Source: a virus. From it: a stretch of 64,000 bases of DNA. A model generated the notes under the pieces. The model worked only from the letters and a program-made list of their open reading frames with translations, did no database searches and had not been told where the DNA came from. How positions within the stretch are numbered: position 1 is the stretch's first letter; every line of letters begins with the position of its first letter. Location: IMG/VR virus record IMGVR_UViG_3300035696_000041; one strand, 5' to 3'. A program made the translations under genes and the position numbers. Of the stretch, positions 5,625 to 47,031 are shown one piece after another.

Positions 5625-6025
5625 TTGGCGGGTTCTTTCTTGGATGTATAGGTATAACCGAAGACGAGATAAGAAAACCCGTTGCTTCGATTGACACCAA
5701 GCAGCACATGCTGTAGGTTTACGTCGGTTGAGCCGTGGAAGTGGTTAAGCACAGCTTCATAGAAGCGGGCAGTCTTCGGAGTAAGTTTAGCTTTCTTGGC
5801 CAACTCAAACCCCTCTTGCCATTCCTTTCCAATGAGACGGTCATCGTAGTTGTAGAATAGCCCTTCCTTGGGGGCACCAAAAACCGTAATAGCATCGCCC
5901 CTGGCCTCGGGGTCCGAGTAATGCATGAAGGTGCGTATCGGCGTATCCTTATCCGTCAACGCAAAGCGGCATGGAAATTCGTCTTCCTGGTCCCAGTACC
6001 CCAAGTTGGAATGTATGCGTTTCAC
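5621..6025 (-). CDS. hypothetical protein (between nadE and pncB)
   Basis: 134-aa ORF translationally coupled to flanking NAD genes. No recognised motif. Confidence 0.45.
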   Translation of the reverse strand: MKRIHSNLGYWDQEDEFPCRFALTDKDTPIRTFMHYSDPEARGDAITVFGAPKEGLFYNYDDRLIGKEWQEGFELAKKAKLTPKTARFYEAVLNHFHGSTDVNLQHVLLGVNRSNGFSYLVFGYTYTSKKEPAK

Positions 6026-7206
6026 TTCGTTACACTTTCTACGGGAAGGCCGAGAGTAGCCTTTACAAGGTTCACGTCTTCGAGATTGCCCGTGTGTTTA
6101 CCAGGGTCATCCGAGAGTTTCACCACACCCACAGAGCCGTTGCCGAAGTCGGCAGTAGCCAGTTTGATAACCATATTCAAGGGTTTGATGCCCTCGATGT
6201 CATTGGCGAAGTGGGTTCCGATACCACCGCACGGCTGAATGAACTTGCGGAAGTACTGGTCGAGGGCAACGTAGGTATCAGTATCCAGCCCATTGCTGAA
6301 CACGAGCCGCTTCTCTTGAGAAGGAATGCGGAGCCTCTTGTAATGGTCCACCGCTCGGATGCCTTGCTCGTAGTTCTCGCCACTGTCCACCCGCACACCA
6401 TCGAAGAGGCGGGCGTCATAGGTATCAAAATCCCGATAGAACACCTTGCTCGTGAAGGTGTCGGTCAGAGCAATACCCACATTGCCATTGAAATGAGCCG
6501 CCCAATGCTTACGCCACATTCTGTCGGCCATGAGGGGGCCATAGAGGGCAGACATTGCCATGATGCACTCGTGGGCGTAGGTGCCGCTTGGAATCACGCC
6601 GTACTTCATCGCAAAGTGCGGGTTGCTTGTGCCGAGGAAACCTTCACCATCACGCATGATTTCCACAACATTTGCTTGCACTTCGTAAGAATGGCGGCGA
6701 CGGGTGCTGAAATCAATCCAGTGGCATTTGTTTTCAGAAAGCTTCGTAGTCTTCCGTTGGATGCGAAGCTTCCAATCGCCAGAGGCGGGCTGATTAGTCA
6801 TACGGAAGTACAGTTCCGAGATAATCGCCATCAGTTTGACTTCCCAATAGATGGTGCGATACCAGTAGCCCGTGATAATGATAGTGAGAGTGCCGTTGAC
6901 TTGCTTCACTTCCACTTCCCGAGGGTCCATGCGGTAGTGCCGCAGCCATTCGATGTAGGTCGGACGCTGGTACTTGATGCTGTTCCGCATCCAATCGGCC
7001 TCGGCGTCGGTCATTTCCAGTTTGGAAAGCATTTCCAGTTGCTTCTGGAGTTCAATATCAAATCCCTTGGGGAAGGGCACCTTGCTCCGAAGGATGAACT
7101 TGTACGACACCACGGCGTTCGGAAAGTCATGGAACACGACAGACCCCATGTTGAACTTGTACAGGTCGTCGTCTAGCATTGAGCGGATGATGGGTTCGTC
7201 AATCAT
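6022..7206 (-). CDS. pncB: nicotinate phosphoribosyltransferase (NAPRTase)
   Basis: SMLDDDLYKFNM N-terminus, LTDTFT and GVRVDSGE motifs typical of PncB. Start taken at the internal ATG 7206, because the upstream 40 codons are low-complexity. Confidence 0.7.
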   Translation of the reverse strand: MIDEPIIRSMLDDDLYKFNMGSVVFHDFPNAVVSYKFILRSKVPFPKGFDIELQKQLEMLSKLEMTDAEADWMRNSIKYQRPTYIEWLRHYRMDPREVEVKQVNGTLTIIITGYWYRTIYWEVKLMAIISELYFRMTNQPASGDWKLRIQRKTTKLSENKCHWIDFSTRRRHSYEVQANVVEIMRDGEGFLGTSNPHFAMKYGVIPSGTYAHECIMAMSALYGPLMADRMWRKHWAAHFNGNVGIALTDTFTSKVFYRDFDTYDARLFDGVRVDSGENYEQGIRAVDHYKRLRIPSQEKRLVFSNGLDTDTYVALDQYFRKFIQPCGGIGTHFANDIEGIKPLNMVIKLATADFGNGSVGVVKLSDDPGKHTGNLEDVNLVKATLGLPVESVTK

Positions 7207-7210
7207 ATGC

Positions 7211-7528
7211 TTATTCGAAGGTCGGGGTTTTGGTGATGGTTTCCGTAGTGCGGGTCGTGTACTGGATTTCGCCGCACTCTTGGCAAACACGTTTCCAACG
7301 AAAATCGGTCTTGGCGGCAACGTCACACGGGCCTCGCCAGTCCACTCCCATCGTGCCAGGAGGGTCGCCAGGGATGGTGTAGCCTTTGTGGTAAATGTGG
7401 TCGGGCGTCACCGCACCCCACCGATGGTTGCACGAGCGTACAGCGGAAACTAGCTTCCGCTCGGTTTCATCCAACTCCAACCGCATTGCGGCAACCCGAA
7501 GGCGAAGGTCTTGAATGTTATGGTTCAT
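7211..7528 (-). CDS. hypothetical protein with CxxC motif
   Basis: ORF 7211..7639 trimmed to ATG 7528. Contains CQECGE. Confidence 0.35.
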   Translation of the reverse strand: MNHNIQDLRLRVAAMRLELDETERKLVSAVRSCNHRWGAVTPDHIYHKGYTIPGDPPGTMGVDWRGPCDVAAKTDFRWKRVCQECGEIQYTTRTTETITKTPTFE

Positions 7529-7862: not shown

Positions 7863-8177
7863 TCAATACTCTTCTTCGGGGGGCATCGGCGGGGTTGTTC
7901 TCGGGGCATGAAAAGCGGTCGCTTTCAAACTCTCGCCCAAGAACTGAGCCTTGTCATGGCCGAAGGGAAGGGTCGGGAAGGTCTGATACGCAGTCCATAT
8001 CCTTTTGTCCCACTCGGGAGAGAGCAGACACTTGTCGAGGAAGGTGCGGGCACGACGATGACTCCACCTTCTCTCGTGCATGTACTTCGCAATGCGGGTC
8101 TCGACTTCGCCCTTAAGGAGAAGGTCGGAGACCACCGTAAGCATATTGAACTCTTCGATGTTGAATGGCTTGCTCAT
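7863..8177 (-). CDS. hypothetical protein
   Basis: 104-aa ORF. Confidence 0.4.
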   Translation of the reverse strand: MSKPFNIEEFNMLTVVSDLLLKGEVETRIAKYMHERRWSHRRARTFLDKCLLSPEWDKRIWTAYQTFPTLPFGHDKAQFLGESLKATAFHAPRTTPPMPPEEEY

Positions 8178-9040
8178 AGAATCCTCGCACCTTTGTACTG
8201 CCAGTCATAGTAGAGGCTCCCCTCGGGGAAGAAGATAAGTTGACGGAACTCATCTTTCCCATTGGTGTCCCGAGTGAGGCAGTTGCCCATACAAACGTTC
8301 TGCCCGTTGACATCGTAAACGTCCATCCCGTGCATCAGGTGTTGCAGCAGAGTCCCGTGGTACTTGGGATAGTTCACAATCTGGGCGAGGGCCGTTTCGT
8401 CCAAAGCGTGGGTCTTCGTCCACTCGGTCACGGCGGGGCTGTCGGTCACTTCACTTGGCATGATGTTGCGGAAGGTCAGTTGCTCCACCTTGTTTTGGCG
8501 GGCAAAGCTTATCATTTCGTCAAGCTTCACCACGCTGTCAATATAGCCCTTGAGCATCATGACGCACAGCCGCACCGAGAAGCCAATCTTGTGCAGCTTG
8601 GCGATAAGTTGAGCCAAGTCGTAGTGTTTGTCGTCGGGGGTGTAAACGGAGGCGTTCTTGGCTTCGTCATAGTGGACCACCGAAAGGGCGATAGTGGTCA
8701 AGCCGAGGGTGTACCAATGGTTCAGATAAGCATCCATTTCTTCGGTATCCTCAGCCATCCGAAGACCATTGGTCTGCATTTCAATGAGCGGGAAGTCGTA
8801 CTCTTGCAGTCCCTTGAGGGTCTCGGTAATGTTGTTCGGGTAGAGGGTTGGTTCACCCTTGCCCGTCAAGAGGACCGTGGTCGTTTCGGCCTTCTGGGCG
8901 AGCCTACAGGCGATACCGAAATTTCGCCAGTTGACCTTGGGAGGGGTGCCGAAAAGGCCCGTTTGCTTGCTGATACAGAAGGGGCACGAGGCGTTACAAG
9001 CCCGTGTCCCCACGACGATTGAGAATGTTTGGAAGTGCAT
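8174..9040 (-). CDS. radical SAM domain protein
   Basis: CNASCPFC (CxxxCxxC) cluster near the N-terminus and a GKGEPTLYP glycine-rich motif. Confidence 0.7.
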   Translation of the reverse strand: MHFQTFSIVVGTRACNASCPFCISKQTGLFGTPPKVNWRNFGIACRLAQKAETTTVLLTGKGEPTLYPNNITETLKGLQEYDFPLIEMQTNGLRMAEDTEEMDAYLNHWYTLGLTTIALSVVHYDEAKNASVYTPDDKHYDLAQLIAKLHKIGFSVRLCVMMLKGYIDSVVKLDEMISFARQNKVEQLTFRNIMPSEVTDSPAVTEWTKTHALDETALAQIVNYPKYHGTLLQHLMHGMDVYDVNGQNVCMGNCLTRDTNGKDEFRQLIFFPEGSLYYDWQYKGARIL

Positions 9041-9625: not shown

Positions 9626-9834
9626 ATGATTGTTATGTGTTTGCCTTTTGGCGTTACTGGATAGACCGTTATTGAATGCTCGCCTTCATCGTTGGCCCAC
9701 TCACTCTTCAAGTAGTGGACGACACCCTTACAAAAAGCATCTATGTCTTCCTCGGATGCCTTGTAGGTATCAGTAACCACTCGGGCAATGGTTTCCTTTC
9801 CTACTACTTTCACTTCAATCGAGACTTGTTTCAT
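9622..9834 (-). CDS. hypothetical protein
   Basis: 70-aa ORF with overlapping stop/start with its neighbours. Confidence 0.35.
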   Translation of the reverse strand: MKQVSIEVKVVGKETIARVVTDTYKASEEDIDAFCKGVVHYLKSEWANDEGEHSITVYPVTPKGKHITII

Positions 9835-11558
9835 TTCCGTTTCAACTGATGAAAGCTATTCCCGTTGACAAAGAATATGCCATCGGACGTAGCAAACAAT
9901 CTCATAGTAGCATCGAATGGTGGGTCTGTCAAGGTCTCGGCTTGAGCCGCCGTGGCGAACAGTTCCAACTCATTGTCGCTTGCCAAGAGGACACACAGCC
10001 CATTGTCCATCACAGTGAAGTTGATGGTGTCGTAAGCAATGTTGTCCACCTTACGCACGTCGCAAATATCGTATGCTTTGTTGAAGATGATAATGATACG
10101 GTCGAATTGACCTTTCTTCTCACCGACAACCACCACAATGTTCCTTTCGGCCTTGGCGTCCACAATACGATAGCCGTCAAGCTGAGGGATATGCTTGCTA
10201 AAACAACTGCCAAGCTTGTAGGGCAGAGTGAGGTATATCTTGCCAAGCAAGTCTTGGATGACGCACCCATTATACATCTTGGCCGAAGTGGTCGAGACGT
10301 TCTCGACTTCCTTGACTCTGTGGACCATCTTATTGCCGAAGGCAGTGAAGCTACTCTCAACCAACTTGCCTTTGCTTATGGTGTAGAAGGCATTGTTGCG
10401 AGCGAACATTTCATTGCTCTGTGCCGTGCCCACGGGGTCGGACTGAGTAAGGATTCGGAACTCAATCTTGTTGCTCAAGGATTGCTGTGCTGTCACCAGT
10501 GTACCATCCGAAGCGGATACGAGCAATATCTTCTTGGCTGCGTGTCTGCCAATCTCTTTCGTATTGGCGTATATGTGCGTCTTAGTGGCAACGTAATATA
10601 CACCCATAATGCTCGTGACTGCGAGAATATTGTCCGCATATGCGGCAATCTGTTCCACCTTCAACTTGTCAGTGCCTTGAATAGTGATAATCTGAGTAGG
10701 CACCAGCAGCGGGGCAGAGCTATCGGGCAGAGGCGGAACACCACGTTCGCCATTGAGGAACACACGTTTGAAGTAGTCCAAGTGGCGAGCGGGAATGACC
10801 TTGAAGTCATTGACGCATGGAGGTACACCCACGCCAGGGTGGAACACGCTTATGCCGTCATCCATTTGCTTTGCCTTCTCATTGGGCTTGTATTTGGCGT
10901 GCCGCCCACGATATGGATGGATATTGGTGTAGAGCCAGAAAGCCAATACAGACCACGAGAACCAGTCAGACCCAATATCGGGATTGTAATGCATGGTCCC
11001 GCTCTTGTCATAGGTGGTCACTCGGCGGTCCCTTACCGAATCCATAATCGCAGTGGCCTTGAATGAGGGAGTTGAATAACTGTCTGTATCAATGAACCAC
11101 GGGATGACAGTGCTCGGCTTCAACTCAGCCAGAATGTTAAGTTCATTCAAATCCACCACGAGACATTGAGCGGCGTGAACATCGTTGACTACCACCTGTA
11201 TCTCTTTGACGAGGCGGTTAATCATCTGGAAGTCCACGTTGTTGTCGTCCTTGAAGGTCTTGGTGAACAGCTTAAGCAACGGCTCAACATCATCCACGTA
11301 GCGAGTAGTATAGCCGAGGGGCTTCCCGTCTTTGGGGTCGAAGATAAGTTCCTTCGGTATCACTACTTGGGGGTTAGTAATGACAGACAACTCCTTCATC
11401 TTGCCGAGAGGGAGTTGCTTGTGGGCGGGGTCGTGGTACAGTTTGTACACCATACTGCCGTTAACATAGATTTCAGCTTCCCCTCCTGCCGCCAAATATT
11501 GGGATGGTTGTAGCGTAACGACATGTTTAGTCCCACCAACTATAACCTTTTTATTCAT
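9831..11558 (-). CDS. protein kinase-like protein (eukaryotic-type kinase fold) with C-terminal domain of unknown function
   Basis: AAGGEAEIY glycine loop, VYKLY lysine, LVVDLNELNIL resembling the HRDLKPENIL catalytic loop, DTDSY in DFG position. Confidence 0.4.
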   Translation of the reverse strand: MNKKVIVGGTKHVVTLQPSQYLAAGGEAEIYVNGSMVYKLYHDPAHKQLPLGKMKELSVITNPQVVIPKELIFDPKDGKPLGYTTRYVDDVEPLLKLFTKTFKDDNNVDFQMINRLVKEIQVVVNDVHAAQCLVVDLNELNILAELKPSTVIPWFIDTDSYSTPSFKATAIMDSVRDRRVTTYDKSGTMHYNPDIGSDWFSWSVLAFWLYTNIHPYRGRHAKYKPNEKAKQMDDGISVFHPGVGVPPCVNDFKVIPARHLDYFKRVFLNGERGVPPLPDSSAPLLVPTQIITIQGTDKLKVEQIAAYADNILAVTSIMGVYYVATKTHIYANTKEIGRHAAKKILLVSASDGTLVTAQQSLSNKIEFRILTQSDPVGTAQSNEMFARNNAFYTISKGKLVESSFTAFGNKMVHRVKEVENVSTTSAKMYNGCVIQDLLGKIYLTLPYKLGSCFSKHIPQLDGYRIVDAKAERNIVVVVGEKKGQFDRIIIIFNKAYDICDVRKVDNIAYDTINFTVMDNGLCVLLASDNELELFATAAQAETLTDPPFDATMRLFATSDGIFFVNGNSFHQLKRK

Positions 11559-11562
11559 ATTT

Positions 11563-12564
11563 TTATGTTATAAGCATTTCCGATAGTATTTTTGGAATGC
11601 GATTTAACTCAGTGTATTTTATTCTCATTAACTCAATACCCCGCTTGCTTGCGTATTGGGTCTTTATAGCATCTCTCCATTGGACGCCCTCCAAATCTTT
11701 TTTTGTGGAGACGTAGTTCCCGAGTTTTCTTCCACACATAAAATGTTGATTTCCGTCATACTCAACAAGTATATTCTTTTTTGGGATGTAGAAGTCGAAC
11801 TTCAACATACGACCAGTCTTGGGGTTTCGGCAATCATCAAAACTTTTCTGAGGAATATATGCAATCTTATTCTGGTCAAAGAATGCCATTATTCTTTGTT
11901 CTCCTTTGGAGAGACGACACTTGGGGCATCCACAACTATCACGGTGTAAATGTAAATGTGGAGTTTGCCAGAACTCCCCGTGTTTTTTGCAAATTATTTG
12001 TAACTTGCGGTGCTCTCCCTCGTAGATTGTTTTTGAATAATCGTAAAGGTCTCCATGAATATGTTTTGCTTCGGTTATAAACTCCGCTTGGGATTTTCGT
12101 CTGGAGGTTGCAGTTTTTACAAACCCACATTTTAGACATCCACTCCCATTGAGATGAGTATTCGGCTTTTGCTTGTACACGCCGTGCTCTGGGCATCGTA
12201 TTATAACAGGTACGTGGGCAGAGACATATGTGGATTTGGAGTAATCATATTTGTCTCCGTGGATTTCTCTTGCCTTTTTGATGAAATCATTGGTATTGGA
12301 AGTATATTTTCCGCTGCAAAAAACACATCCACAACCTCGTAAATGCGAATTCGGCTTCTGATGAAATTCGCCGTGAATAGGACATATTATTGTTACTTTT
12401 TCCTTGTTATCTTTACCATAGATAGTTTTGCCATAATCATACTTATTGCCATGAATTACAGCCGCTCGTTGTACAAATTCAGTTGTAGTAAGTTTCTCGC
12501 TCATATACATAAATAGCGAGAAAAGTCCCAAAAACGTAATATTGTTTGTCAGTATGTATTTCAC
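11563..12564 (-). CDS. homing endonuclease-like protein: three HGxKYDYSK zinc-ribbon repeats plus C-terminal DUF559/Vsr-like nuclease
   Basis: Repeats HGNKYDYGK / HGDKYDYSK / HGDLYDYSK each with CxxC pairs. C-terminal VEYDGNQH...R motif of Vsr-like endonucleases. Confidence 0.5.
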   Translation of the reverse strand: MKYILTNNITFLGLFSLFMYMSEKLTTTEFVQRAAVIHGNKYDYGKTIYGKDNKEKVTIICPIHGEFHQKPNSHLRGCGCVFCSGKYTSNTNDFIKKAREIHGDKYDYSKSTYVSAHVPVIIRCPEHGVYKQKPNTHLNGSGCLKCGFVKTATSRRKSQAEFITEAKHIHGDLYDYSKTIYEGEHRKLQIICKKHGEFWQTPHLHLHRDSCGCPKCRLSKGEQRIMAFFDQNKIAYIPQKSFDDCRNPKTGRMLKFDFYIPKKNILVEYDGNQHFMCGRKLGNYVSTKKDLEGVQWRDAIKTQYASKRGIELMRIKYTELNRIPKILSEMLIT

Positions 12565-12860
12565 TCGACAAACCTTTCATTATCCTTCGGCCAGTTCTTT
12601 AGCCTATCCTCAGCTACATGACGCCACTTCAAGCCAATCTTGGTCTTGTACCATTTGGGACCATATTGAGACAGCAGACTCCAGAAGTGGCCAGAGCCGC
12701 TACGGGCATACCACTTCTTGAACTCCCTCGCCTCTTTGACAGTCTTGAACTGAATCGTGACTTGACGTTTGGGGTCATTTATCTCTTGGGGATGTTGTTT
12801 CATATTTTGCACCATTTTTAGGGTGTCTATTGAAGAAGTCGGCCTCTTCCACAACAGCAA
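12561..12860 (-). CDS. hypothetical basic protein
   Basis: 99-aa ORF, Lys/Trp-rich. Confidence 0.3.
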   Translation of the reverse strand: MLLWKRPTSSIDTLKMVQNMKQHPQEINDPKRQVTIQFKTVKEAREFKKWYARSGSGHFWSLLSQYGPKWYKTKIGLKWRHVAEDRLKNWPKDNERFVE

Positions 12861-13098
12861 ACCCCCATACCGTTTTGGTCTCTGGATTCCATAGGTCAGA
12901 TTTATTCTCGCCGGTCAGTTCCGCCCACTTCGATTTGGCATCTTCCAGAGAAGCTGCCTCGATTTCAATGACATCATGAAGTTCCCAACATCCTTCATAT
13001 TCCATGAGACCGCCACATTCCAATCCTATTTTATATTTCATATTATTATACTTGCAATACTTATATCGTCTGAATGTGTAGTCCCATCCTTCAAGCAT
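12775..13098 (-). CDS. hypothetical protein
   Basis: 107-aa ORF. Confidence 0.3.
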   Translation of the reverse strand: MLEGWDYTFRRYKYCKYNNMKYKIGLECGGLMEYEGCWELHDVIEIEAASLEDAKSKWAELTGENKSDLWNPETKTVWGFAVVEEADFFNRHPKNGAKYETTSPRDK

Positions 13099-13841
13099 TT
13101 CCTTTTGAAGGCGGAAATCCTTCGTAATACAAACTCTCCTTCGAGGGTCTTGTAGCCCGTGAACTCTTCAATAAGGTCTGTCCACGGAATGGATTCGTTG
13201 TTGGCTTTCCGAAAGCTATTGATGCCATCCGAGACCACGGCAATGATGTCACCAGATTCAACTTGACACGTTCCCACAAAAGGCATGAATGGCTTGGATT
13301 CACTGCCTTTGTAAGACTTATCCCCAGTATTGTGGTTATTGAAATGGGTGATTTCTTTTACATAACCATCAAACTCTTTCAGATACGCTTGCTTCCGAGG
13401 CGGGTCCAATTCGTATGACAAATAATCAGGGGCACCGCTGGTTAACTGAACATGGCTGGCAGTTACCCAACCATCCTTGGCATGTCTGATAATCACCACA
13501 CCATCGCCCCACATGGCATAATTGGCCACGCCATCCTTCACCCATGCCACGAGCAAGGTAGCATCGAGGAACTGGGGAGATAAGTATGGGAATGTATCAA
13601 TCGCCCTCTGAGCACGATTGATGGTCTTCTCGCCTAAGTTGACCCATGATAGTTCTTTCATTAAGCGTATCTCGGCCTTAGCCGCCATCGCCATACAACG
13701 GGCACCGAAGTCCACGTCGGGAGAAGCGGAGCAACCATCAGATAAGATTGCATATGCAAGTCCCGCTCCCGAATATGCGAGTGCATAATCCTCGCATACA
13801 ATGTGGTCCTTACCTATGCTGAATGTACTATTTGCGTTCAT
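13038..13841 (-). CDS. PP2C-family Ser/Thr protein phosphatase
   Basis: N-terminal ILSDGCSASP (DGxGG-like) and VVSDGI near the C-terminus, as in PP2C/SpoIIE phosphatases. Confidence 0.5.
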   Translation of the reverse strand: MNANSTFSIGKDHIVCEDYALAYSGAGLAYAILSDGCSASPDVDFGARCMAMAAKAEIRLMKELSWVNLGEKTINRAQRAIDTFPYLSPQFLDATLLVAWVKDGVANYAMWGDGVVIIRHAKDGWVTASHVQLTSGAPDYLSYELDPPRKQAYLKEFDGYVKEITHFNNHNTGDKSYKGSESKPFMPFVGTCQVESGDIIAVVSDGINSFRKANNESIPWTDLIEEFTGYKTLEGEFVLRRISAFKRKCLKDGTTHSDDISIASIII

Positions 13842-14298
13842 GTCTTAATGATTGAATGATTTGGGACGTGGAGTCAAACTGCATTACATCGGGCACGATG
13901 ACGACATCCGCCTTAAATGGGTTAACTACTTCTTCTGGTTTGAAATTGGTATTCTTAAAGAGCACCGTGGGATAGAACTTGGAGCACGCCATTTCCCAAT
14001 CGGCAAGACTGCCCATGATGAATGTTATGTCAACACATTCGAGAGCATTTACAATCATTACTCGTTGGTGCTCGGGTATGACAGGGCGTCCTGGCCCCTT
14101 GACCTTGCGTACAAAGTCATCGCAATCCACGCCTACAATGAGCACGTCGCAGAGACGCTTGCACTTCTGTAGATAGGCAAGGTGGAGATTGTGAAACAAA
14201 TCAAAGCACCCCGAAGTCAGCCCCACCACAGGGTTCTTGAAGCTGTCACTCAAGTTGACTAACTCACAATCCCTCTGACTGCGAATATCTATGAGCAT
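13828..14298 (-). CDS. cytidylyltransferase-family nucleotidyltransferase (RfaE domain II / NadM-like HxGH fold)
   Basis: GCFDLFHNLHLAYL (GxFDxxHxGH) followed by DVLIVGVDCDDFVRKVKGPGRPVIPEHQR, as in HldE domain II. Confidence 0.6.
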   Translation of the reverse strand: MLIDIRSQRDCELVNLSDSFKNPVVGLTSGCFDLFHNLHLAYLQKCKRLCDVLIVGVDCDDFVRKVKGPGRPVIPEHQRVMIVNALECVDITFIMGSLADWEMACSKFYPTVLFKNTNFKPEEVVNPFKADVVIVPDVMQFDSTSQIIQSLRHERK

Positions 14299-14614
14299 AA
14301 GGTAACTCTTTGATAAGCTTAAGGCGTTGGGCCAGATACCACATGCCGCCTTGGGCCTTGGGCCTCAGTAAGCCCACGAAATTCTGTATCTCTACGAGGC
14401 ACCACACTCGGCCTTCCATCTTAAGGTGGGGTGCTTCGGGTTTAGAACAGCAATGCCATCCGGGCCGGAAAGCGAATCGTTTGGTTCTGTATGCCTTTGC
14501 GGGCAACCAAATGTTAGGGATGATGACTTGCTTCCGATTGATGAACAACGGACCAAGCGTGCCATCCTTACGCTTACGGAATAGCTTGTAGGCTATCATT
14601 TGGAGAAAGCCCAT
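14264..14614 (-). CDS. hypothetical protein
   Basis: 116-aa ORF. Confidence 0.35.
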   Translation of the reverse strand: MGFLQMIAYKLFRKRKDGTLGPLFINRKQVIIPNIWLPAKAYRTKRFAFRPGWHCCSKPEAPHLKMEGRVWCLVEIQNFVGLLRPKAQGGMWYLAQRLKLIKELPYAHRYSQSEGL

Positions 14615-14802
14615 TTGATGCCCTCGTCTTTGTTATCAAAGACTCGGACTTTGGCATAGCTATGGGAATATCCCACATGACCCTCTTTCACAAACCGCTC
14701 GGCCTCTGCCTCAGTCGTTACGGCAACGCCGAATGGGGTGTCGGAGGAACGCATGGTGCCATCGCCATCCGCCAGTAGCACATAGACGTACTTTTCTTTC
14801 AT
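14596..14802 (-). CDS. hypothetical protein
   Basis: 68-aa ORF. Confidence 0.35.
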   Translation of the reverse strand: MKEKYVYVLLADGDGTMRSSDTPFGVAVTTEAEAERFVKEGHVGYSHSYAKVRVFDNKDEGIKWAFSK

Positions 14803-14819
14803 AACTCATTAGCATGAGG

Positions 14820-14851
14820 GAGGGCGGATTGGGACCGCCGCTCCCTCACGG
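14820..14851 (-). other. GC-rich hairpin (12-bp stem, one bulge) between vWA gene and downstream ORF
   Basis: gagggagggcgg attggga ccgccgctccctc. No U-tract, so a processing/stability element is as likely as a terminator. Confidence 0.3.
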
Positions 14852-14860
14852 GGTACTGGC

Positions 14861-15634
14861 TTAGAACTTGAACTGGCTCGGATTCAGCGGAGCCGAAGCC
14901 TTGCCCGTTCCCAGAGACGAAGACGTGCTGCTAATGGACTGCGACACGAATTCGGCGAGTTTGGCGATACGCCCTGGAGTGGCGTTGCCGATGTCCACGT
15001 ACTGGTCGAAACCAGCCTCGTCCTTAACCGTCTGTAGGTAGCTACTGAGGCTTTGGACGTTGTTGGTGACGCCTACGAGAATCGTAAGCAAACTCTCAAG
15101 GTTCTCAGCCCTACGGACTGCCAAGAGAGACTTCTTGACAACAGCAGCATCAGCGGCGAGGTCGCCACTATTGATTGAGCCACAGTTGCCCTCACCATCA
15201 GTTGCCACGACCACGATGCCGTTCACCAAGAAGTCTTGGCTAGTAAGCTGTTTGCCGTAGGTGCCCGTCGCCTGAATGGCTTCGTCGCAAGCTTCAAACA
15301 ACGCCGTGCTGCCGCCGATTTGGAGAATGTTGTCATAATCCTTTTCGACGATAGTATTCAGAAGCTTGAAGCCGTGCAACTCAGTAACCACCGAGGAAAA
15401 CTGCACGACACGAAACAGGAGGTTGTCCTTGCGAGGCGACTTTTCGCACGCTTTGAAGACGGTCTTCACGCATTGCTCAAGTTGGGTCGCAAAGCCCATG
15501 ACTGAGCTACTCGTGTCAATCACGAGAGTAGCCAGAGTGTATTCCGAGGCACCAAGGTCTTTAATCTTGGCGGCAGAGAATTTGTATCCCGAACCTGCGT
15601 TCAGGGACTCAAGGTTTTTTGATAGGAGGCTCAT
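14861..15634 (-). CDS. von Willebrand factor A (vWA) domain protein (TerY-like)
   Basis: LVIDTSSSV (DxSxS MIDAS) and downstream T and D MIDAS positions (VVATDGEG). Confidence 0.65.
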   Translation of the reverse strand: MSLLSKNLESLNAGSGYKFSAAKIKDLGASEYTLATLVIDTSSSVMGFATQLEQCVKTVFKACEKSPRKDNLLFRVVQFSSVVTELHGFKLLNTIVEKDYDNILQIGGSTALFEACDEAIQATGTYGKQLTSQDFLVNGIVVVATDGEGNCGSINSGDLAADAAVVKKSLLAVRRAENLESLLTILVGVTNNVQSLSSYLQTVKDEAGFDQYVDIGNATPGRIAKLAEFVSQSISSTSSSLGTGKASAPLNPSQFKF

Positions 15635-15659
15635 ATATAACTATGCCTTTCTTTGTTGT

Positions 15660-15684
15660 TGCCCCCGCCCGTAAGCGGGGGCGA
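15660..15684 (-). other. intercistronic GC hairpin
   Basis: gcccccgcc cgtaa gcgggggc, immediately upstream of a conserved leader shared with pncA. Confidence 0.3.
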
Positions 15685-15689
15685 GTGTG

Positions 15690-16499
15690 TTACCAATCCT
15701 TCGTGTTGGTGGTCTTCATCCCCTTCTTGACCAGTTCTCTCACGAAGTCTTGGCCAAGCTTCTCGAAGCCGCCGACATTACTCGACGTGTCTTCAAGGAG
15801 GGTGAACTTGGAGACTTGGCTATCGCCAAACTCCGCAGCCACGTCACGGATGCTGTTTGCGACACAGTGCGACAGTGCCTCACCCGTGATAAGGATTTCA
15901 TCGGCCTCAGTAAGCATATCAATGAGGGCCGTATTCAGCTTGGTGGAAGGGTCGTCGTCATCGGGCACGTCGGCCTTGACAGCCGAGTAGTGCTCCGTGA
16001 ACAGGTTCGAGCCTTTGGCCACGAAGTTGACACGATTGAAGTCGCTCTCCCACTCATAGAGTGCCTTGGCAACTTCGGGAACGATGGCGTGACCCCAAGT
16101 GCCGATTAGGCAGTGCGGGGGCCAGATGCAGAGAACGTATCGCCCGTTTTTCTTGAGGGTTTCAACGTAACTCTGGGCCTTGCCTTGCCACTTCGGATTG
16201 AATGCCCGCCACACGCCGTTCTTCACGTCATCCTCAGTAATGAGAGTGAACGGATTCGGCCTATCGCCCTTGGAGTTGACCCAGAAGGCGGGGTGTGCGA
16301 TATGCACATATTGGTGCGAATCCAACGTGCAGTGGATTTGTTCGAGACGCCCCTTGTTCTTGGAAACGAACTTCCCAAGTCGGGCCATGTCTTGGTCTGC
16401 CCCGGCGACTACCAAAGCACCCTTCTCCCCGCCCGGGCCGAGGGGGATACAGAAGTCGTTCTGTGGGTCAATGGTTATTAGGTGTACTTTTCGGCTCAT
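15690..16499 (-). CDS. pncA: nicotinamidase / isochorismatase-family cysteine hydrolase
   Basis: IDPQNDF motif at the N-terminus and catalytic ITGEALSHCV. Confidence 0.65.
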   Translation of the reverse strand: MSRKVHLITIDPQNDFCIPLGPGGEKGALVVAGADQDMARLGKFVSKNKGRLEQIHCTLDSHQYVHIAHPAFWVNSKGDRPNPFTLITEDDVKNGVWRAFNPKWQGKAQSYVETLKKNGRYVLCIWPPHCLIGTWGHAIVPEVAKALYEWESDFNRVNFVAKGSNLFTEHYSAVKADVPDDDDPSTKLNTALIDMLTEADEILITGEALSHCVANSIRDVAAEFGDSQVSKFTLLEDTSSNVGGFEKLGQDFVRELVKKGMKTTNTKDW

Positions 16500-16553
16500 A
16501 TAACTATGCCTTTCGTTGTTGTTTCTTAATCCCCGACACGGGACTAAAGTGTG

Positions 16554-17477
16554 TTATTTCAAGCGTAATATCTCTCCTTTGAAGTAGTCGTTCAACATTG
16601 AGAGCAGAGGACGGTGCATAGGCATGATGTCCCCTTCGCTTATCTCACCAAATTGTGCCCACTTGACGAACTTGATGTCGTCTCGGGCCTTCGGCTCCCC
16701 GCCGATGTACCGCATTACGTATAGGAACGTGAGAATCTTGTCTTGCTCACGGCGATACCGCCAGTCGTCCACGATGGAGCTACCGACATAGCCAACCAAC
16801 TCAAGGTCAAGGCTCGTCTCTTCCTTGCCTTCACGGCGGGCCGCATCCTCGGCACTCTTGTCTTTGGCGGGGTCAGTGAACCCACCAACAAGCTGCCAGA
16901 GGTCCGCATTGGGCTTCTGAGCCAGCAAGAGCCGCTTCTTGTCGTAGTCCACGATACCAAGGTCCACCGTCGCTTTGAACGAGGGATATTGATTCTGAAC
17001 GGCGAATACGACTCCTTCACGGAAGTCTTGCGTGTTCTTGCCTTTGATGCCTATGCGGCGGCGAACTTCACTTGCCGATATGTACTTGCTCGGCACGAGT
17101 TCTACGGTGGGGTAATGGCCCATGTAGCCATTGATGAAGCTGTCTCGACTACCGTACAGGACCACACGAAGATTGGGTCCAACGGTCTTGGCGATTTGTT
17201 TATCGAGGTTCTTGCTCCAGATTTCGTTGTGACCAACGTCGTCAATGTAGAGCACTTCGATGTCTTGATAAGCTTCCTCAATCATCGCCTTGCGGATAGC
17301 AAAGTCGAAAGGATTGTTGAATGTGCATTTCAGCGGAGAGAGTCCGAGGAATATAAGGACTCGGGGGTGAGCGGCACGTACTGTGTCCAGTATCTCTTTG
17401 TGCCCCTCATGGAGGAACGGCGATTGAAATCTCGCCACGATTACGCCAACTTCGGCGTCATTATCCGTCGTCTTCAT
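16554..17477 (-). CDS. bifunctional NMN/NaMN adenylyltransferase (NadM type) - Nudix ADP-ribose pyrophosphatase
   Basis: VIVARFQSPFLHEGH (NadM GRFQPFHxGH) then Nudix box GGFTDP...REGKEETS. Start trimmed to ATG 17477. Confidence 0.7.
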   Translation of the reverse strand: MKTTDNDAEVGVIVARFQSPFLHEGHKEILDTVRAAHPRVLIFLGLSPLKCTFNNPFDFAIRKAMIEEAYQDIEVLYIDDVGHNEIWSKNLDKQIAKTVGPNLRVVLYGSRDSFINGYMGHYPTVELVPSKYISASEVRRRIGIKGKNTQDFREGVVFAVQNQYPSFKATVDLGIVDYDKKRLLLAQKPNADLWQLVGGFTDPAKDKSAEDAARREGKEETSLDLELVGYVGSSIVDDWRYRREQDKILTFLYVMRYIGGEPKARDDIKFVKWAQFGEISEGDIMPMHRPLLSMLNDYFKGEILRLK

Positions 17478-17617
17478 AGCACCTAATCTGTATCTCGGTT
17501 TTGCTAACACAACGTAGCTTCATCAAAATCTCGGCCACGCTGACAACAATACATATTGTTGATTCTGCCAAAAGTGTAACAGAAACACTAAGTCATGTCA
17601 AGTTTTCTTTTCGGCAG

Positions 17618-17941
17618 TCAAAACCCCGCAGCCTTCAACACACTACGGAGGGCTTGCTCGGGGTCTTGTTCGGGCATTATAGCCCCCGCCGCAGCCATCA
17701 TGGCAATTAAGCGTGGACCGTATGCTTCCGAAATTCTATACACATTCCGCCAGTATGCGGAGACATCCAAGATGCTCTTTTCGCTATCCTTAACCCACTT
17801 GGGAGGCAACCAGTCCATGAGCATCATTCGCTCCATCGGCTCAATGGGCCGAGGGGCACCGACTTCACCAGTCTCTTCGTCGGCAATGAACTTGATTTCA
17901 GTATCCATATTACAAATCCTCACCAGCGGCATCCTCGGCAA
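17618..17941 (-). CDS. hypothetical protein
   Basis: 107-aa ORF. Confidence 0.35.
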   Translation of the reverse strand: MPRMPLVRICNMDTEIKFIADEETGEVGAPRPIEPMERMMLMDWLPPKWVKDSEKSILDVSAYWRNVYRISEAYGPRLIAMMAAAGAIMPEQDPEQALRSVLKAAGF

Positions 17942-18110
17942 TATTGTCGAGTTCCCTCTGCTTATCCTTCAACTCATTGACTACCCATTGCACCCGCTCC
18001 GCTTCGGTCATCGGGTACTCGACATCATCCTTTTCGATGCGAATGGTCGGAGCCAGGGCAAGGTTGAGGATGCCCTTGATTTCTTTGAGTTGTTGGGCGG
18101 CAGTAGCCAT
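17910..18110 (-). CDS. hypothetical protein
   Basis: 66-aa ORF. Confidence 0.3.
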   Translation of the reverse strand: MATAAQQLKEIKGILNLALAPTIRIEKDDVEYPMTEAERVQWVVNELKDKQRELDNIAEDAAGEDL

Positions 18111-18113
18111 AGG

Positions 18114-18302
18114 TCAATTCATGGTCGGAGTCCCACCACCCACGCCGAACACCGCAAGCAGTGTGAAAACCAAGGCGAGGATGAAGAGAACAACGAGTCC
18201 CATGCCCCATTTGTCGAACTTCTTGTCGAGGTAGGCGAGGATAGTCCCGCCGAAGAAGGCAACCCAAAGGATGCCGATGAGTAGGATTAGCATTGGATTC
18301 AT
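18114..18302 (-). CDS. small membrane protein (two TM)
   Basis: 62 aa, two hydrophobic helices. Confidence 0.45.
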   Translation of the reverse strand: MNPMLILLIGILWVAFFGGTILAYLDKKFDKWGMGLVVLFILALVFTLLAVFGVGGGTPTMN

Positions 18303-18306
18303 ATTG

Positions 18307-18627
18307 TTATCGTTGGATTCTCCACATTGAGTAACGTTTCCAGATGAAGAACTTGATGCGTCCTGGTACTTGCCATCGTATCATCACCCACCAGAACGCC
18401 GCAGCCACGAGGCCACTGAGCAGTTGTACCATGTCGGTAGGGTGAAAGGGGAAATGCCATCCGTAGAGGAAAAGGTAGAAGGGGAGGCGAACGAAGGCGA
18501 GCAAGAAGAGACACGCTATGCCGAAGCCGATGAGGTCGCCGAGGCCATTGATGCCTTTCCAATCGCCGTGATATTTCATGGCGTGAGTGACCGCCATGCC
18601 GAGGAAAACGATAATGAGTAGGTCCAT
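18307..18627 (-). CDS. membrane protein
   Basis: Multiple TM segments. Start moved to ATG 18627, 7 nt downstream of the predicted TSS. Confidence 0.45.
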   Translation of the reverse strand: MDLLIIVFLGMAVTHAMKYHGDWKGINGLGDLIGFGIACLFLLAFVRLPFYLFLYGWHFPFHPTDMVQLLSGLVAAAFWWVMIRWQVPGRIKFFIWKRYSMWRIQR

Positions 18628-18637
18628 AATTTTCAAC

Positions 18638-18670
18638 ACCAATATAGCACAGCTTTATAAAATGTCAAGC
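18638..18670 (-). promoter_or_regulatory. sigma70-type promoter (family member b) with palindromic TTTTATAAAA spacer
   Basis: Minus strand TTGACA-TTTTATAAAGCTGTGC-TATATT. Confidence 0.45.
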
Positions 18671-18672
18671 CC

Positions 18673-19035
18673 TTAGATAATGACGGGTTGATATTCATCC
18701 CGAAGTAGGTCGAAGGGTGACATGTAGCAGAGGCCAATCCTGTAGTCCGCATAGGCCACGGTACGCTTTTGATGATACAGCTTGACGAAGAGAGGGTCTT
18801 TGCTGCGATACTCGTTGTAGTACACCACGGCGTTGGTCAACCTATACTTTTCCTTCTCGGGCACAAGGAAGTTCTCCCATATGATTTGATTTGGAGAGAA
18901 TTCAACGTAGGGGCCACGCTTACCAATAACCACACGCAAGTAGCCGTAAGCGAGATAGAGACCGCCTTGAGAGTAGAACTTCAAGTCGGCCCCGTGCTCG
19001 ACGTTTATCAGCAACCTTTTCTCCCATTTACTCAT
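18673..19035 (-). CDS. hypothetical protein
   Basis: 120-aa ORF. Confidence 0.4.
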   Translation of the reverse strand: MSKWEKRLLINVEHGADLKFYSQGGLYLAYGYLRVVIGKRGPYVEFSPNQIIWENFLVPEKEKYRLTNAVVYYNEYRSKDPLFVKLYHQKRTVAYADYRIGLCYMSPFDLLRDEYQPVII

Positions 19036-19505: not shown

Positions 19506-21125
19506 TTAGACGACGTGGTAGCCAGTGACATAACCACGGATGATTTCGGCGTGTTCGGGACTGTCCGCACCTTTTTCATCGCCACTGAGCCACTTGGGAC
19601 CACGACCAGAGGCACGGTCCTTCTGACCCTCGGCAAGCCCCTCGGCGTAGCGAGTGGAGTTGCTTTGGCGGGTCTCGATGTACTTAACTATATCCAAGAC
19701 CGTCGCAGAAATCGCTTTTTCTGCGTCTTCGTCGGGAATTTCAAAGCCGAATTCCTCTTCGAGAGCCATCGCCAGTTCCACCCCGTCAAGGGAATCAATA
19801 CCGAAGAAGCCACTGTCCATCCTCTCATTGGGCTTGATGTCAGCCTCATTGAGTCCAAGCTGTTCGGCCAGAAGGGCACGGACTTTGATATACGTAGGGT
19901 TATTCTCGGCGGTGACTTCGGCGTCAATGCGGGCCTTGTCCTCGGGCGAGAGGAAGTTACTCAGCACCGCACCGACCAGTTCAGCCGTAGGAGTTCCGCC
20001 CACAGCATTGGGAATCGGCTCAGTCTCGTTACAACCGCAACCACACACGTCGGTAAGGCGAGCAGAGACGCCGGGGCTTTGCAGAGGCACCACGGGGACC
20101 GGAGCCACGGGAGCATTGGGAATCGGCTCGGCCACGGGAGGCGGGCCGTCGTGCGTACCAATCGGGGGAATCTCGTCCTTGGGAGTGCATCCGCAATAGT
20201 CGAGTTTTTCACCGCAAACGTCGCAAGTGCAAGTGCAATCCTCGGAAGGTTCACCGCACTTGTCGCAGACTTCGGTATCACAATCACACTCCCCATCGGG
20301 AGCACCGCATTGATGGCAGATACCCTCGTCGTCGGGTTCGTAGTCGGTGCAGAGAGTGTCGGGCAGCGGGCCATTGTACTCGCCGATGACAGTGTACTTG
20401 CAGCAACGAAGCTTCTGACAATTGCAATCATCGGGCACGCTCACCACGTCGGCGGGGTCAATTTCGACGATGACCACACGCCTGCCCCAACCTTTTGCAT
20501 ACGCAAGGGAGCCAGCGTGCAAGCCGAAGGAGCAGCCATTGTGATAGTTATCGTCCACCGAGGAACGCTCGACTTCAATCGTGGACCCGACTTCGTTAAG
20601 CAAACGCCCGCTTTCGTCAACACGCCCTTGGAGAACGACGGTTTCCTTGTTGCCGTTGATGGACCAGAAGTCCAACGTGACTCCCTTGTAGGCGAGGAAG
20701 GTGCCACGGACAGTGAGCGGCATCCCCCGATGCTCAAGAAAGTTATACATTTCGGCGATAGCACGGGCCGAAGGATTCTTCATCTTCCGCTCGATGTAGT
20801 TGGCAATGGGCTTGTAACTCAGCCCGTCCTTCATGAACGCCAGCACCCGCTCGGCGTCAATGGTGTGAATGGGTCGGCCAGCGTAGGTCACGCCCGAGGG
20901 GCAGACGGAGAGACGGCCAACGGTGTAGGTCTCCACGGCGGTCTTCAAATCCATGAGGGCGAGTAATTCGTCGGTAGGTCCAGTAAAGGTGCTGCCCTCG
21001 TAGCCGATGCGGTTGAACACCTTGTTGATGTCTTCCCATTTCGGATGGTCGGCTCGGGCAGTCTTAAGGCCAGTATCGTCAACCACCAGGATGGTGTCTT
21101 GCGTTCGAGATATGGTTTTTATCAT
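19506..21125 (-). CDS. rIIB: rIIB-like protein fused to a C-terminal acyl carrier protein (ACP) domain via a Cys-rich linker
   Basis: [35 protein letters not shown]...CKYTVIGEY parallels T4 rIIB (CSRGLHVCS...VHPRDVVSIP...CQYEVVEDV). C-terminal [42 protein letters not shown] is a canonical ACP with DSL phosphopantetheine site. Confidence 0.7.
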
Positions 21126-21163: not shown

Positions 21164-21587
21164 GGAGAGTTTCAAACAGAGGGACTTTCTGTTGAAACGG
21201 GTTATGCTCGTCCATCCAACCCCTGAACATTCTCTGCAACTGAGCCTCGGTAGTGGCGGTTTTACCGGGACGATGGACGAACCCAAAAGATGTACTTTCG
21301 ATTCTATACGGATGGTCTTGGAAGAACACTTCGTCGGCACAACCCGCAAATTGTTTGAGAGTCAAGTCAATGTAGTAGCCGTTCCAAGTGACGTAGCAAT
21401 GGCAGTCATTCATGTGGAAGACGGGTTTGAGACCCATTTCTTTCAACGCACGGAATACGAGATAGCTACATATTCCACATGCACCGCCCAACCTGTCTAT
21501 CTGAAAGGAAAGGTTGTTCTTAACAACGTGCTCCACGAATTCCTCTCGGATGGCAGTCACTACGTATTTGACTCTCTGAATGTTCAT
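21135..21587 (-). CDS. hypothetical protein
   Basis: 150-aa ORF between rIIA and rIIB. Confidence 0.4.
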   Translation of the reverse strand: MNIQRVKYVVTAIREEFVEHVVKNNLSFQIDRLGGACGICSYLVFRALKEMGLKPVFHMNDCHCYVTWNGYYIDLTLKQFAGCADEVFFQDHPYRIESTSFGFVHRPGKTATTEAQLQRMFRGWMDEHNPFQQKVPLFETLPLTKAKRVL

Positions 21588-32785: not shown

Positions 32786-32787
32786 AA

Positions 32788-47026: not shown

Positions 47027-47031
47027 TTTGC

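Follow-up and report, generated by a model that had tools for sequence, protein, structure and literature searches.

A TerY-P-like kinase, PP2C, and vWA triad linked to a PncA-like nicotinamidase gene in huge phages

Introduction

TerY-P triads, consisting of a Ser/Thr kinase, a PP2C phosphatase, and a TerY-type vWA protein, are widespread in bacteria, where they occur in ter clusters, in CoCoNuT systems, in stand-alone defense modules, and at the Escherichia coli yeg locus. In the literature, which was incompletely covered, we came across no account of a mechanism, a substrate, or a signal for any such triad. Here we analyze a triad of this type, together with the adjoining gene for a PncA-like nicotinamidase, encoded on the minus strand of a 64,000-nucleotide (nt) stretch of viral DNA, IMG/VR record IMGVR_UViG_3300035696_000041 (the whole stretch is referred to below as the window, and positions are those of the whole window). 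An earlier note on this DNA had described triad-like genes interleaved with NAD genes and invaded by a homing endonuclease; all open reading frames (ORFs) that it described are present, on the minus strand, in the ORF list.

The described system to which the phage kinase profile aligns best is E. coli YegL-PphC-YegI, in which the same three protein types are encoded at one locus, with yegL and pphC overlapping and yegI on the same strand. YegI is an active Ser/Thr kinase although it lacks the HRD and DFG motifs; K39, D141, and S162 (published numbering; +2 in the RefSeq translation) are each needed for its autophosphorylation, and it is dephosphorylated by PphC. The yeg locus differs from the phage set in being chromosomal and bacterial and in comprising no nicotinamidase gene. 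The IncHI2 ter triad shows the same order as the phage genes (TerY vWA, PP2C, kinase), but its kinase and PP2C are much larger, and it sits with TerD-family, phosphoribosyltransferase, and ATP-grasp genes rather than with a PncA gene.

TerY-P is also found in CoCoNuT systems of types II and III-A (PMC11090510) and in stand-alone TerY-P-like defense modules with reported antiphage function (Gao et al., 2020, as cited in PMC11090510). These systems share the three-component plan with the phage set (PMC11090510); they are, however, host-encoded defenses, and TerY-P kinases carry a C-terminal zinc ribbon (ter and CoCoNuT) or an OB fold (defense) (PMC11090510), unlike the propeller-bearing phage kinase. 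Deinococcus radiodurans DRA0331-0334 is described as a bacterial operon with a vWA protein, a Ser/Thr kinase, and a PP2C acting as a signaling module, which is set apart by an FHA protein, by not being phage-encoded, and by having no nicotinamidase.

Phages are also known to restore nicotinamide adenine dinucleotide (NAD+). In NARP1, NARP2, and NARP3, phage enzymes rebuild NAD+ from breakdown products or precursors, thereby escaping NAD+-depleting immunity, and the pathway-defining pairs are Adps and Namat, Nampt and Nmnat, and PnuC and NadR. None of the three includes a nicotinamidase, PncB, NadE, or a kinase, phosphatase, or vWA part, whereas the route encoded in the window runs through PncA, PncB, NadM, and NadE; its NadM-Nudix fusion, an NMNAT of the NARP2 type, is the only one of the pathway-defining enzymes identified in the region. 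In jumbo phages, pncA and clusters of Preiss-Handler genes have been noted bioinformatically, without the triad (PMC11662467). In the published work consulted (a survey of viral NAD+/ADP-ribose genes, studies of huge, jumbo, and megaphage gene content, and NARP1-3; coverage incomplete), we found no TerY-P-type triad as conserved phage cargo and, in the same incompletely covered literature on triads and phage NAD+ genes, neither a propeller-fused TerY-P kinase nor a nicotinamidase-linked triad. The triad plan is known from ter, yeg, CoCoNuT, and stand-alone TerY-P systems, and the nicotinamidase-linked four-gene phage set appears to be undescribed.

Results

A four-gene module conserved across huge phages

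The genes that make up the module in the window are, in 5' to 3' order:

15690-16499, minus strand: PncA-like nicotinamidase (family profile, conserved active site, linkage)
14861-15634, minus strand: TerY-type vWA protein, 257 amino acids (aa) (Pfam VWA at 3.5e-7, hhalign, residue conservation)
13038-13841, minus strand: PP2C-family Ser/Thr phosphatase, 267 aa (Pfam PP2C_2, AlphaFold2, Foldseek)
9831-11558, minus strand: YegI-type Ser/Thr kinase domain followed by a beta-propeller, 575 aa (AlphaFold2, Foldseek, hhalign)

Related loci were retrieved from IMG/VR through the kinase, and their ORFs were searched with profiles of the window families. The scan gave 78 loci, 67 of them with distinct kinase sequences (22-87% identical to the window protein), and co-occurrence was counted within 9 kb of the kinase gene. 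PP2C was found in 64/67, vWA in 61/67, and the PncA-like gene in 58/67 of these loci, and the order PncA-vWA-PP2C-kinase on one strand is kept in 49. PncA adjoins vWA in 58 loci, and 19 loci are compact, other DNA among the four genes amounting to under 400 nt; module genes overlap in compact operons, L047 and L057 being examples. Three permuted loci keep all four genes adjacent, namely L034 (vWA-PP2C-kinase-PncA), L062 (PP2C-kinase-PncA-vWA), and L086 (PncA-vWA-kinase-PP2C). Adjacency persists at 22-30% identity and from AT-rich (L008) to GC-rich (L007) genomes, while the flanks are not conserved, and clustering of all ORFs revealed no real gene family beyond the four in more than 22 loci. 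In the 56 loci with all four genes, the four proteins diverge in a correlated manner (r 0.57-0.77). The PncA-like gene thus belongs to the module as its fourth core member. What looked like gene fusions in L065 and L075 was rejected, because these are long ORFs that overlap in different frames, an outcome of the simple ORF caller.

A search of 50,697 GenBank phage records with the kinase and with the vWA protein gave matches in just three uncultured huge phages, the same three for both, which have 27-32% kinase identity and carry the module genes too; PP2C was detected by tblastn in two of them and in the third through the family profile and Pfam. In one of them, the AT-rich LR756500, the PncA-like, vWA, PP2C, and kinase genes are contiguous, and the last two overlap. 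Megablast of the region against the same records gave no match. When one genome per GTDB species was scanned, the matches were confined to seven contigs of metagenome-assembled genomes, with no isolate genome among them.

The propeller-kinase

The 575-aa protein has no match in Pfam, PHROGs, PADLOC, or NCBIfam, and its family profile matches no PDB sequence; because the family libraries gave nothing, its identity as a kinase rests on structure and profile-profile comparison. A database search returned 372 relatives at E <= 0.001, an alignment of 46 was supplied to AlphaFold2, and among the relatives listed (120 of 372) identity to the 575-aa protein is 58-100% and nearly all are ~574 aa long. 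In the resulting model (pLDDT 86.8, from the predicted local distance difference test), residues 1-278 adopt the canonical protein-kinase topology, residues 279-292 form a disordered linker, and residues 299-575 comprise 28 beta-strands arranged as a seven-bladed beta-propeller. In Foldseek searches against the PDB, the best match to the whole model is LRRK2 (kinase and WD40; 4e-10), which has the same kinase-then-propeller layout; since identity (10-12%) and TM-scores (0.3) are low, we regard this as an architectural analogy and not as family membership. The N-terminal domain matches the Hanks-type kinases PknS, CDPK1, granulovirus PK-1, and CK1, the C-terminal domain matches many WD40/BamB propellers, and the top match in the viral structure library BFVD is a 550-aa phage 'serine/threonine protein kinase' covering the full length (4.5e-31).

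The kinase family profile aligns with E. coli YegI over 239 columns (hhalign, Prob 91.8, E 7.5e-7), in contrast to a canonical Hanks kinase, for which Prob was 19.7 over 26 columns; the ter-plasmid kinase is only marginally similar (Prob 21). In the alignment, K39 is paired with the YegI lysine, VVD136-L-N-E-L-N141 with the VGDVNQNS loop, and D157-T-D159-S160 with DSD-S, so that the phage kinase and YegI share a non-canonical, VxDxNxxN-type catalytic loop without HRD and a DxD-Ser motif replacing DFG. Among 68 kinase-family sequences (median identity to the window protein 32%), G25, G26, K39, D136, N138, N141, D157, S160, and T163 are 96-100% conserved, as are D198-W199-x-S201, H214-P215, and R272; D159 is invariant just among the 46 closer relatives, and no residue of the propeller reaches 93% conservation. 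Three very distant family members match Pfam Pkinase directly (2e-7, 1.7e-6, and 0.026). The family comprises ~980 clusters (50% identity) at E <= 1e-30, and among the best 150 of these almost all members are 550-590 aa long with full-length matches.

YegI differs in its membrane-spanning C-terminal half, which has no propeller. In the model of the phage protein we found no membrane-integrated C-terminal region of this kind, and a soluble all-beta propeller follows the disordered linker; nor was the C-terminal zinc ribbon of ter and CoCoNuT kinases or the OB fold of defense kinases found, the propeller occupying this position. The earlier note had called VVDLNELNIL a catalytic-loop mimic in a kinase-fold protein: the kinase-like fold is borne out by the AlphaFold2 model, Foldseek, the hhalign alignment with YegI, and BFVD, but 'mimic' fits less well, as the catalytic residues are kept and the protein looks competent. 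To judge from these comparisons, the 575-aa protein is probably an active YegI-type kinase with a fast-evolving binding domain.

Two further kinase genes were observed. A second, unrelated Ser/Thr kinase-like gene lies ~35 kb from the module (45986-47182, minus strand; phrog_2361 'serine-threonine kinase', 1e-34), so the phage encodes at least two kinases. In the 595-kb phage LR756511 (L006, 14834-16405), a canonical Hanks-type kinase (GEGGMGTVYKA...) is located ~4 kb downstream of the propeller-kinase.

The PP2C phosphatase

The 267-aa protein matches Pfam PP2C_2 (PF13672) with an E-value of 1.4e-12 and 48 bits against a cutoff of 24, and all of the 120 relatives listed carry the same Pfam family. 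Its AlphaFold2 model, built from an alignment of database homologues, has a pLDDT of 89 and a predicted template modeling score (pTM) of 0.87, and the top 50 Foldseek matches in the PDB are all PP2C/PPM phosphatases, among them PstP, RsbX-type proteins, TAP38, Stp1, PPM1K, ABI1, tPphA, and SpoIIE; structure prediction thus upholds the proposed PP2C fold. Residues D18, D35-G36, G112-D113-G114, D205-G206, and D258-D259 are at least 98% conserved in 63 PP2C sequences, and D35 aligns with D46 of E. coli PphC, mutation of which abolishes PphC activity. In the source gene call for the original 65,485-bp contig this protein is 218 aa long (P0121, 82% coverage); relatives back the full 267-aa ORF.

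The TerY-type vWA protein

The vWA protein contains a complete metal ion-dependent adhesion site (MIDAS; D40-x-S-x-S44, T110, and D146), 98-100% conserved. As references we used bona fide TerY proteins of an IncHI2 ter cluster, in which the gene order is TerY1, TerX, TerY2, TerY3, PP2C, kinase. With hhalign, the phage vWA profile aligns with TerY2 (Prob 91.4, E 9e-7, 182 columns), YegL (Prob 82.5, E 9.8e-6, 173 columns), and TerY1 (Prob 80.5, E 1.3e-5, 180 columns), compared with Prob 19 (E 1.2e-3, 54 columns) for ViaA, a generic vWA control. The TerY2, TerY1, and YegL alignments all extend into the C-terminal segment, through to the Ser-rich tail, where the consensus LAKLAxFVSxSISSxSQALGTGxxSQxLTF matches FFKWVSASIS/VSS of TerY proteins in the shared motif [FW]VSxS[IV]S. 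The protein is therefore specifically TerY-like, as had been supposed. S231, S233, S235, and S238 of the tail are each at least 94% conserved, and of 63 sequences 46 end in Phe and a further 14 in Ile, Leu, or Val. Some loci contain a second vWA paralogue (L039, 1037-2459; L058, 3774-5578; L081, 13368-14126), and the extra copy in L039 is without the conserved Ser-rich tail.

The PncA-like nicotinamidase and its NAD-metabolic neighborhood

Under curated thresholds the window PncA alone falls below the cutoffs (Pfam Isochorismatase, 20.9 bits versus 27; NCBIfam PRK11609, 27 versus 174). The best PDB sequence matches of its family profile are nicotinamidases, yeast Pnc1 first (2h0r, 4e-18), and the orthologue from L008 exceeds the Pfam cutoff. 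The catalytic triad D11/K162/C212 and the metal site D60/H62/H129 are at least 97% conserved in 60 sequences and align with the matching yeast Pnc1 motifs, and PncA is the most conserved of the four module proteins.

The window encodes a full deamidated route from nicotinamide, comprising PncA and the following enzymes acting on or forming nicotinic acid mononucleotide (NaMN), nicotinamide mononucleotide (NMN), and NAD+:

16554-17510, minus strand: NadM-type NMN/NaMN adenylyltransferase-Nudix fusion (Pfam NUDIX 2.1e-14 and CTP_transf_like 1.4e-4; NCBIfam bifunctional NMNAT/Nudix)
6022-7326, minus strand: PncB, nicotinate phosphoribosyltransferase (NCBIfam NF003704 at 4.5e-121)
4191-5624, minus strand: NadE, glutamine-dependent NAD synthetase (Pfam CN_hydrolase and NAD_synthase)

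Related genes recur next to the module in other phages: NAD synthase and NadM-Nudix in 22 of the 67 loci each, PncB in 20, another nucleotidyltransferase in 10, a calcineurin-like phosphoesterase in 9, and a second nicotinate phosphoribosyltransferase family, PARP, and a nucleoside deoxyribosyltransferase-like protein in 6 each. At least one further NAD biosynthesis gene lies within 9 kb of the module in 36 loci. NadM-Nudix is a frequent but not constant neighbor. PncA, in contrast, is more than one of the NAD genes interleaved with the triad, as it belongs to the conserved module.

Two side observations concern this neighborhood. In L003/L004 (60% kinase identity), the module is followed at 12788-18701 by PncB, a calcineurin-like phosphoesterase, a histidine phosphatase, a Macro-domain protein, and a WGR-PARP, and this stretch is a broader NAD+/ADP-ribose island. 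In the window, a radical-SAM protein with a weak MoaA-like and a weak viperin-family match (1.8e-5) is encoded between the module and PncB (8174-9040, minus strand), directly behind a promoter-like site at 9090-9063, and recurs in L011 and L012.

Homing-endonuclease-like insertions in the module

Several module gaps, in the window and in relatives, contain endonuclease-like genes:

11563-12564, minus strand: free-standing homing-endonuclease-like gene, 333 aa (zinc-ribbon repeats, PHROG, sporadic presence, low GC content)
L002 6416-7231, minus strand: endonuclease-like insertion, LAGLIDADG type, between PncA and vWA
L012 6296-7216 and 8015-9004: endonuclease-like insertions, DUF723 type
L015 5426-6532 and 8230-8967: endonuclease-like insertions, DUF723 type

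The true start of the window endonuclease is probably the ATG at 12504 (313 aa) and not the GTG at 12564. Its translation reveals three HG[ND][KL]YDY[GS]K...C-x-x-HG...C-x-x-C repeats and a C-terminal nuclease-like region, and it matches Pfam DUF4379/DUF723, phrog_559 (3.8e-64), phrog_9084 ('homing endonuclease'), and other endonuclease PHROGs. The PHROG annotations are HNH or homing endonuclease, whereas Pfam recognizes the zinc-ribbon repeats alone; there was no meaningful match among PDB sequences, and the Vsr-like class put forward in the earlier note for the nuclease region could not be confirmed from these matches. The three zinc-ribbon repeats described before are accordingly confirmed, readable as KYDY[GS]K.

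The GC content of the gene is 0.39, compared with 0.47-0.55 in its neighbors. At the site immediately 5' of the kinase start, the gene or an orthologue is confined to the window, L011, L012, L015/L023, and L021, and it is missing there from the closer relatives L001 (87% kinase identity) and L010 (78%) and from L002 (68%). Such sporadic presence among close relatives, together with low GC content, is the pattern of a free-standing homing endonuclease. Close relatives, compared as advised in the earlier note, keep the three-gene order with or without intervening genes. The endonuclease gene, lying between kinase and PP2C and immediately 5' of the former, has no relation to the module and is a selfish insertion, as that note had suspected. 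Together with the insertions in L002, L012, and L015, it makes the module look like a hot spot of homing-endonuclease-like genes. In L007, a module gap is filled by a 592-aa ORF (5045-6823).

Transcription unit, accessory genes, and intercistronic leaders

The module genes of the window lie in a minus-strand run of tightly spaced or overlapping genes, extending from ~17600 to 9100 in the ORF list. In 5' to 3' order it comprises NadM-Nudix, the PncA-like gene, vWA, two small ORFs, an RfaE-domain-II-like nucleotidyltransferase, PP2C, a 99-aa ORF, the endonuclease-like ORF, the 575-aa ORF, and three small ORFs. Besides the genes listed above, its features are:

17573-17601, minus strand: upstream of NadM-Nudix, a candidate sigma-70-like promoter (TTGACA-17-TACACT with TG; consensus match)
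16500-16553, minus strand: leader before PncA, twin of the next, with a hairpin of -11.3 kcal/mol
15635-15689, minus strand: PncA-vWA leader with a hairpin of -20.6 kcal/mol, an A-rich spacer, and AAAGGCATAGTTAT before the ATG
14803-14860, minus strand: GC-rich hairpin after vWA, -28.7 kcal/mol, z -6.0, without a U-tract
13828-14802, minus strand: variable accessory genes between vWA and PP2C, as the next three lines
14596-14802, minus strand: 68-aa ORF
14264-14614, minus strand: 116-aa ORF matching phrog_12224
13828-14298, minus strand: RfaE-domain-II-like nucleotidyltransferase (TIGR02199 at 2.5e-26, well under the equivalog cutoff)
12561-12860, minus strand: 99-aa accessory ORF between PP2C and the endonuclease, with a homologue of 77% aa identity at the same position in L010
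9622-9834, minus strand: 70-aa ORF whose ATG overlaps the kinase stop (ATGA), with homologues at the same position in L001 and L010
9101-9119, minus strand: terminator-like hairpin, the next on this strand (pattern match)

The promoter candidate at 17601-17573 is the probable start of the transcription unit and the hairpin at 9119-9101 its probable end. As this hairpin is the next terminator-like site on the strand and precedes another strong promoter-like site, the most economical reading of these consensus matches is that NadM-Nudix through the small ORFs may form one unit of ~8.5 kb. The promoter-like site at 9090-9063, directly after the hairpin, is a near-perfect sigma-70 match (TTGACA-16-TATATT); in the whole region 18 promoter-like sites were counted against a shuffle expectation of 12.3 +/- 3.5, and the excess is not clear. 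The vWA gene had been taken for the last cistron of its operon, which is not borne out, because no terminator-like site follows it and same-strand genes run on to 9119-9101.

In all three gaps (14803-14860, 15635-15689, and 16500-16553) the stop codon is followed at once by a stable hairpin that lacks a U-tract; the one after vWA is for this reason no canonical terminator, and the gap hairpins could serve in RNA processing or stability or act as partial terminators. The leaders before PncA and vWA share TAACACAC, a hairpin, and AACAAC..AAAGGCATAGTTAT just before the ATG. The 14-mer AAAGGCATAGTTAT has exactly two exact copies in the window, against 0.26 chance matches expected even when two mismatches are allowed, and its exact motif was not found in any related locus, so that it is a within-genome duplication and characterizes this genome rather than the module. 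The intercistronic leaders described earlier as conserved are therefore a matching pair in the window without counterparts in relatives. A copy with one mismatch, AAAGGGATAGTTAT, lies at 32784-32797 (minus strand), ~200 nt upstream of an SPFH/Band-7 gene (31246-32580). An Rfam search of the window found nothing.

Regarding the accessory genes, the nucleotidyltransferase family occupies the position between vWA and PP2C in just 4 of the 67 loci; given the NAD context, the window protein could be a NaMN/NMN adenylyltransferase and not a heptose enzyme. A 107-aa ORF at 12775-13098 has no homologue, unlike the overlapping 99-aa ORF.

Phage origin and other genes of the window

Homologues of two phage genes are encoded upstream of the module:

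19506-21125, minus strand: rIIB homologue
21584-23974, minus strand: rIIA homologue

Besides these homologues of rIIA and rIIB, the window carries genes for a DNA ligase and a thymidylate synthase as well as transposase/TnpB genes, and its relatives lie on huge-phage contigs of up to 619 kb; this identifies the window as phage DNA and bears out the suggestion that the triad is phage cargo.

Some of these genes have features of their own. The rIIB-like protein is an unusual fusion, residues 414-483 at its C-terminal end being a phosphopantetheine-attachment (acyl carrier protein) domain. The Pfam match of thymidylate synthase (38066-39373, minus strand) spans residues 78-435 for a model of 266 positions, indicating a ~77-aa N-terminal extension and ~90 residues of insertion. 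A TnpB/IS605 OrfB-type gene (2951-4156, minus strand) shows Cas12f1-like TNB, OrfB_IS605, and HTH_OrfB_IS605 matches, and a second transposase is encoded at 54389-55591 (plus strand; phrog_506, 7e-117); both are mobile elements within the phage genome.

Discussion

At the level of sequence, the four proteins keep their predicted catalytic or metal-binding residues, the kinase is related to YegI and the vWA protein to TerY and YegL, and the linkage of the genes on one strand is tight and ancient. That this is a real, homologous, and functional triad we regard as highly probable. A functional coupling of the nicotinamidase to it is favored, with some reserve, and the combined reading, in which a phage version of the TerY-P triad and the nicotinamidase form a four-gene serine-phosphorylation switch coupled to nicotinamide salvage during infection, stands at about even chances.

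In such a switch, the fast-evolving propeller would dock a partner or sense a signal, the hydrophobic C-terminus of the vWA protein being a candidate ligand. The kinase would autophosphorylate S160 of the activation segment and may phosphorylate the Ser cluster S231/S233/S235/S238 of the vWA tail, which together with S160 comprises the likeliest targets; the role of this tail as phospho-acceptor is put forward tentatively, as a possibility short of even odds. PP2C would strip the phosphates and reset the switch. The MIDAS site of the vWA protein would hold a client, for which the nicotinamidase encoded immediately upstream is the best candidate, and as its output the switch would control the first step in the route from nicotinamide through nicotinate, NaMN, and nicotinic acid adenine dinucleotide (NaAD) to NAD+. 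The remaining steps would in the window be supplied by PncB, NadM-Nudix, and NadE, allowing the phage to rebuild NAD+ when it is cleaved during infection.

Several points weigh against this reading. The co-occurrence counts are conditional on the presence of the kinase, because the loci were retrieved through it, and ORF coordinates in the related loci come from a simple longest-ORF caller. In 31 of the 67 loci there is no other NAD biosynthesis gene within 9 kb, and the linkage of PncA with the triad could reflect co-regulation without physical or regulatory coupling. The PP2C profile gave weak or null results against both PphC and the ter-plasmid PP2C (Prob 3.8 for the latter), with no specific affinity beyond the Pfam PP2C_2 family shared with PphC, and for this reason no specific PP2C orthology is claimed. 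The phage proteins also have no hits to the PADLOC TerY-P models at E <= 1; this negative is uninformative and was dropped as evidence against TerY-P, since the bona fide E. coli triad itself fails these models (no hits for YegI and PphC, and 0.032 for YegL).

Of the alternatives, the likeliest is host takeover, in which the kinase would modify host transcription, translation, RNA-decay, or defense proteins early in infection, PP2C would limit or reverse these modifications or erase the marks of defense kinases, vWA would act as an adaptor, and PncA would be merely co-transcribed. T7 Gp0.7 is a precedent for a phage kinase phosphorylating host proteins early in infection. The operon lies behind a sigma-70-like promoter in a region with rIIA, rIIB, and other early-type genes, the variability of the propeller is what one would expect of a domain that binds targets and follows diverse host proteins, and the 31 loci without other NAD genes nearby agree with it. 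This explanation is nevertheless unlikely: none of the four proteins is more conserved than PncA, its gene remains next to the others even where the locus is permuted, which is hard to account for by simple co-transcription, and the recurrent neighbors are mostly NAD-metabolic.

We consider a phage-borne defense or superinfection-exclusion system, which would detect a rival phage and block or abort its replication, thereby protecting the infection by the resident jumbo phage, to be distinctly improbable. The homology of the kinase and vWA protein to parts of a triad with a reported antiphage function, the fast evolution of a sensor-like propeller, and the mobile elements clustering around the module would fit such a role. 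The module, however, is not sporadic, given the range of kinase identity, the correlated divergence, the ~980 kinase clusters, and the constant architecture; it contains no nuclease or other toxic effector and has no PADLOC match, and a nicotinamidase is an unlikely defense effector. That the four genes form no functional unit and are neighbors merely through gene order inherited in one phage lineage has very little to recommend it, because, although vertical co-inheritance alone would also produce correlated divergence and all loci were found via the kinase, adjacency holds at 22-30% identity across AT-rich and GC-rich genomes without conserved flanks, genes overlap in compact operons, permutations keep all four together, and the same order is found in IncHI2 ter and the same three genes cluster at E. 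coli yeg.

A more specific form of the switch coupled to nicotinamide salvage, which at present we hold to be doubtful, is that the module constitutes a phosphorylation-gated entry to a fourth, Preiss-Handler-type phage NAD+ route, with the propeller-kinase sensing NAD+ cleavage or host NADase defense and switching the nicotinamidase on via vWA, with reset by PP2C. The PncB, NadM, and NadE returning nicotinamide to NAD+ may then be phage- or host-encoded. If true, this would be the first regulated, signal-responsive counter-defense metabolic module in a virus and the first functional read-out for any TerY-P-type triad.

The repeated invasion of module gaps by endonuclease genes marks the module as a conserved target shared among co-infecting relatives. 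In this large, phage-specific branch the triad is tied to an enzyme of known reaction, often among NAD+ salvage genes, and since the nicotinamidase reaction is known, it offers a concrete, assayable output for an otherwise opaque triad. NAD+ is a central battleground between phages and bacterial immunity, as NARP1-3 illustrate, and the module suggests that in huge phages NAD+ salvage is under the control of Ser/Thr phosphorylation.

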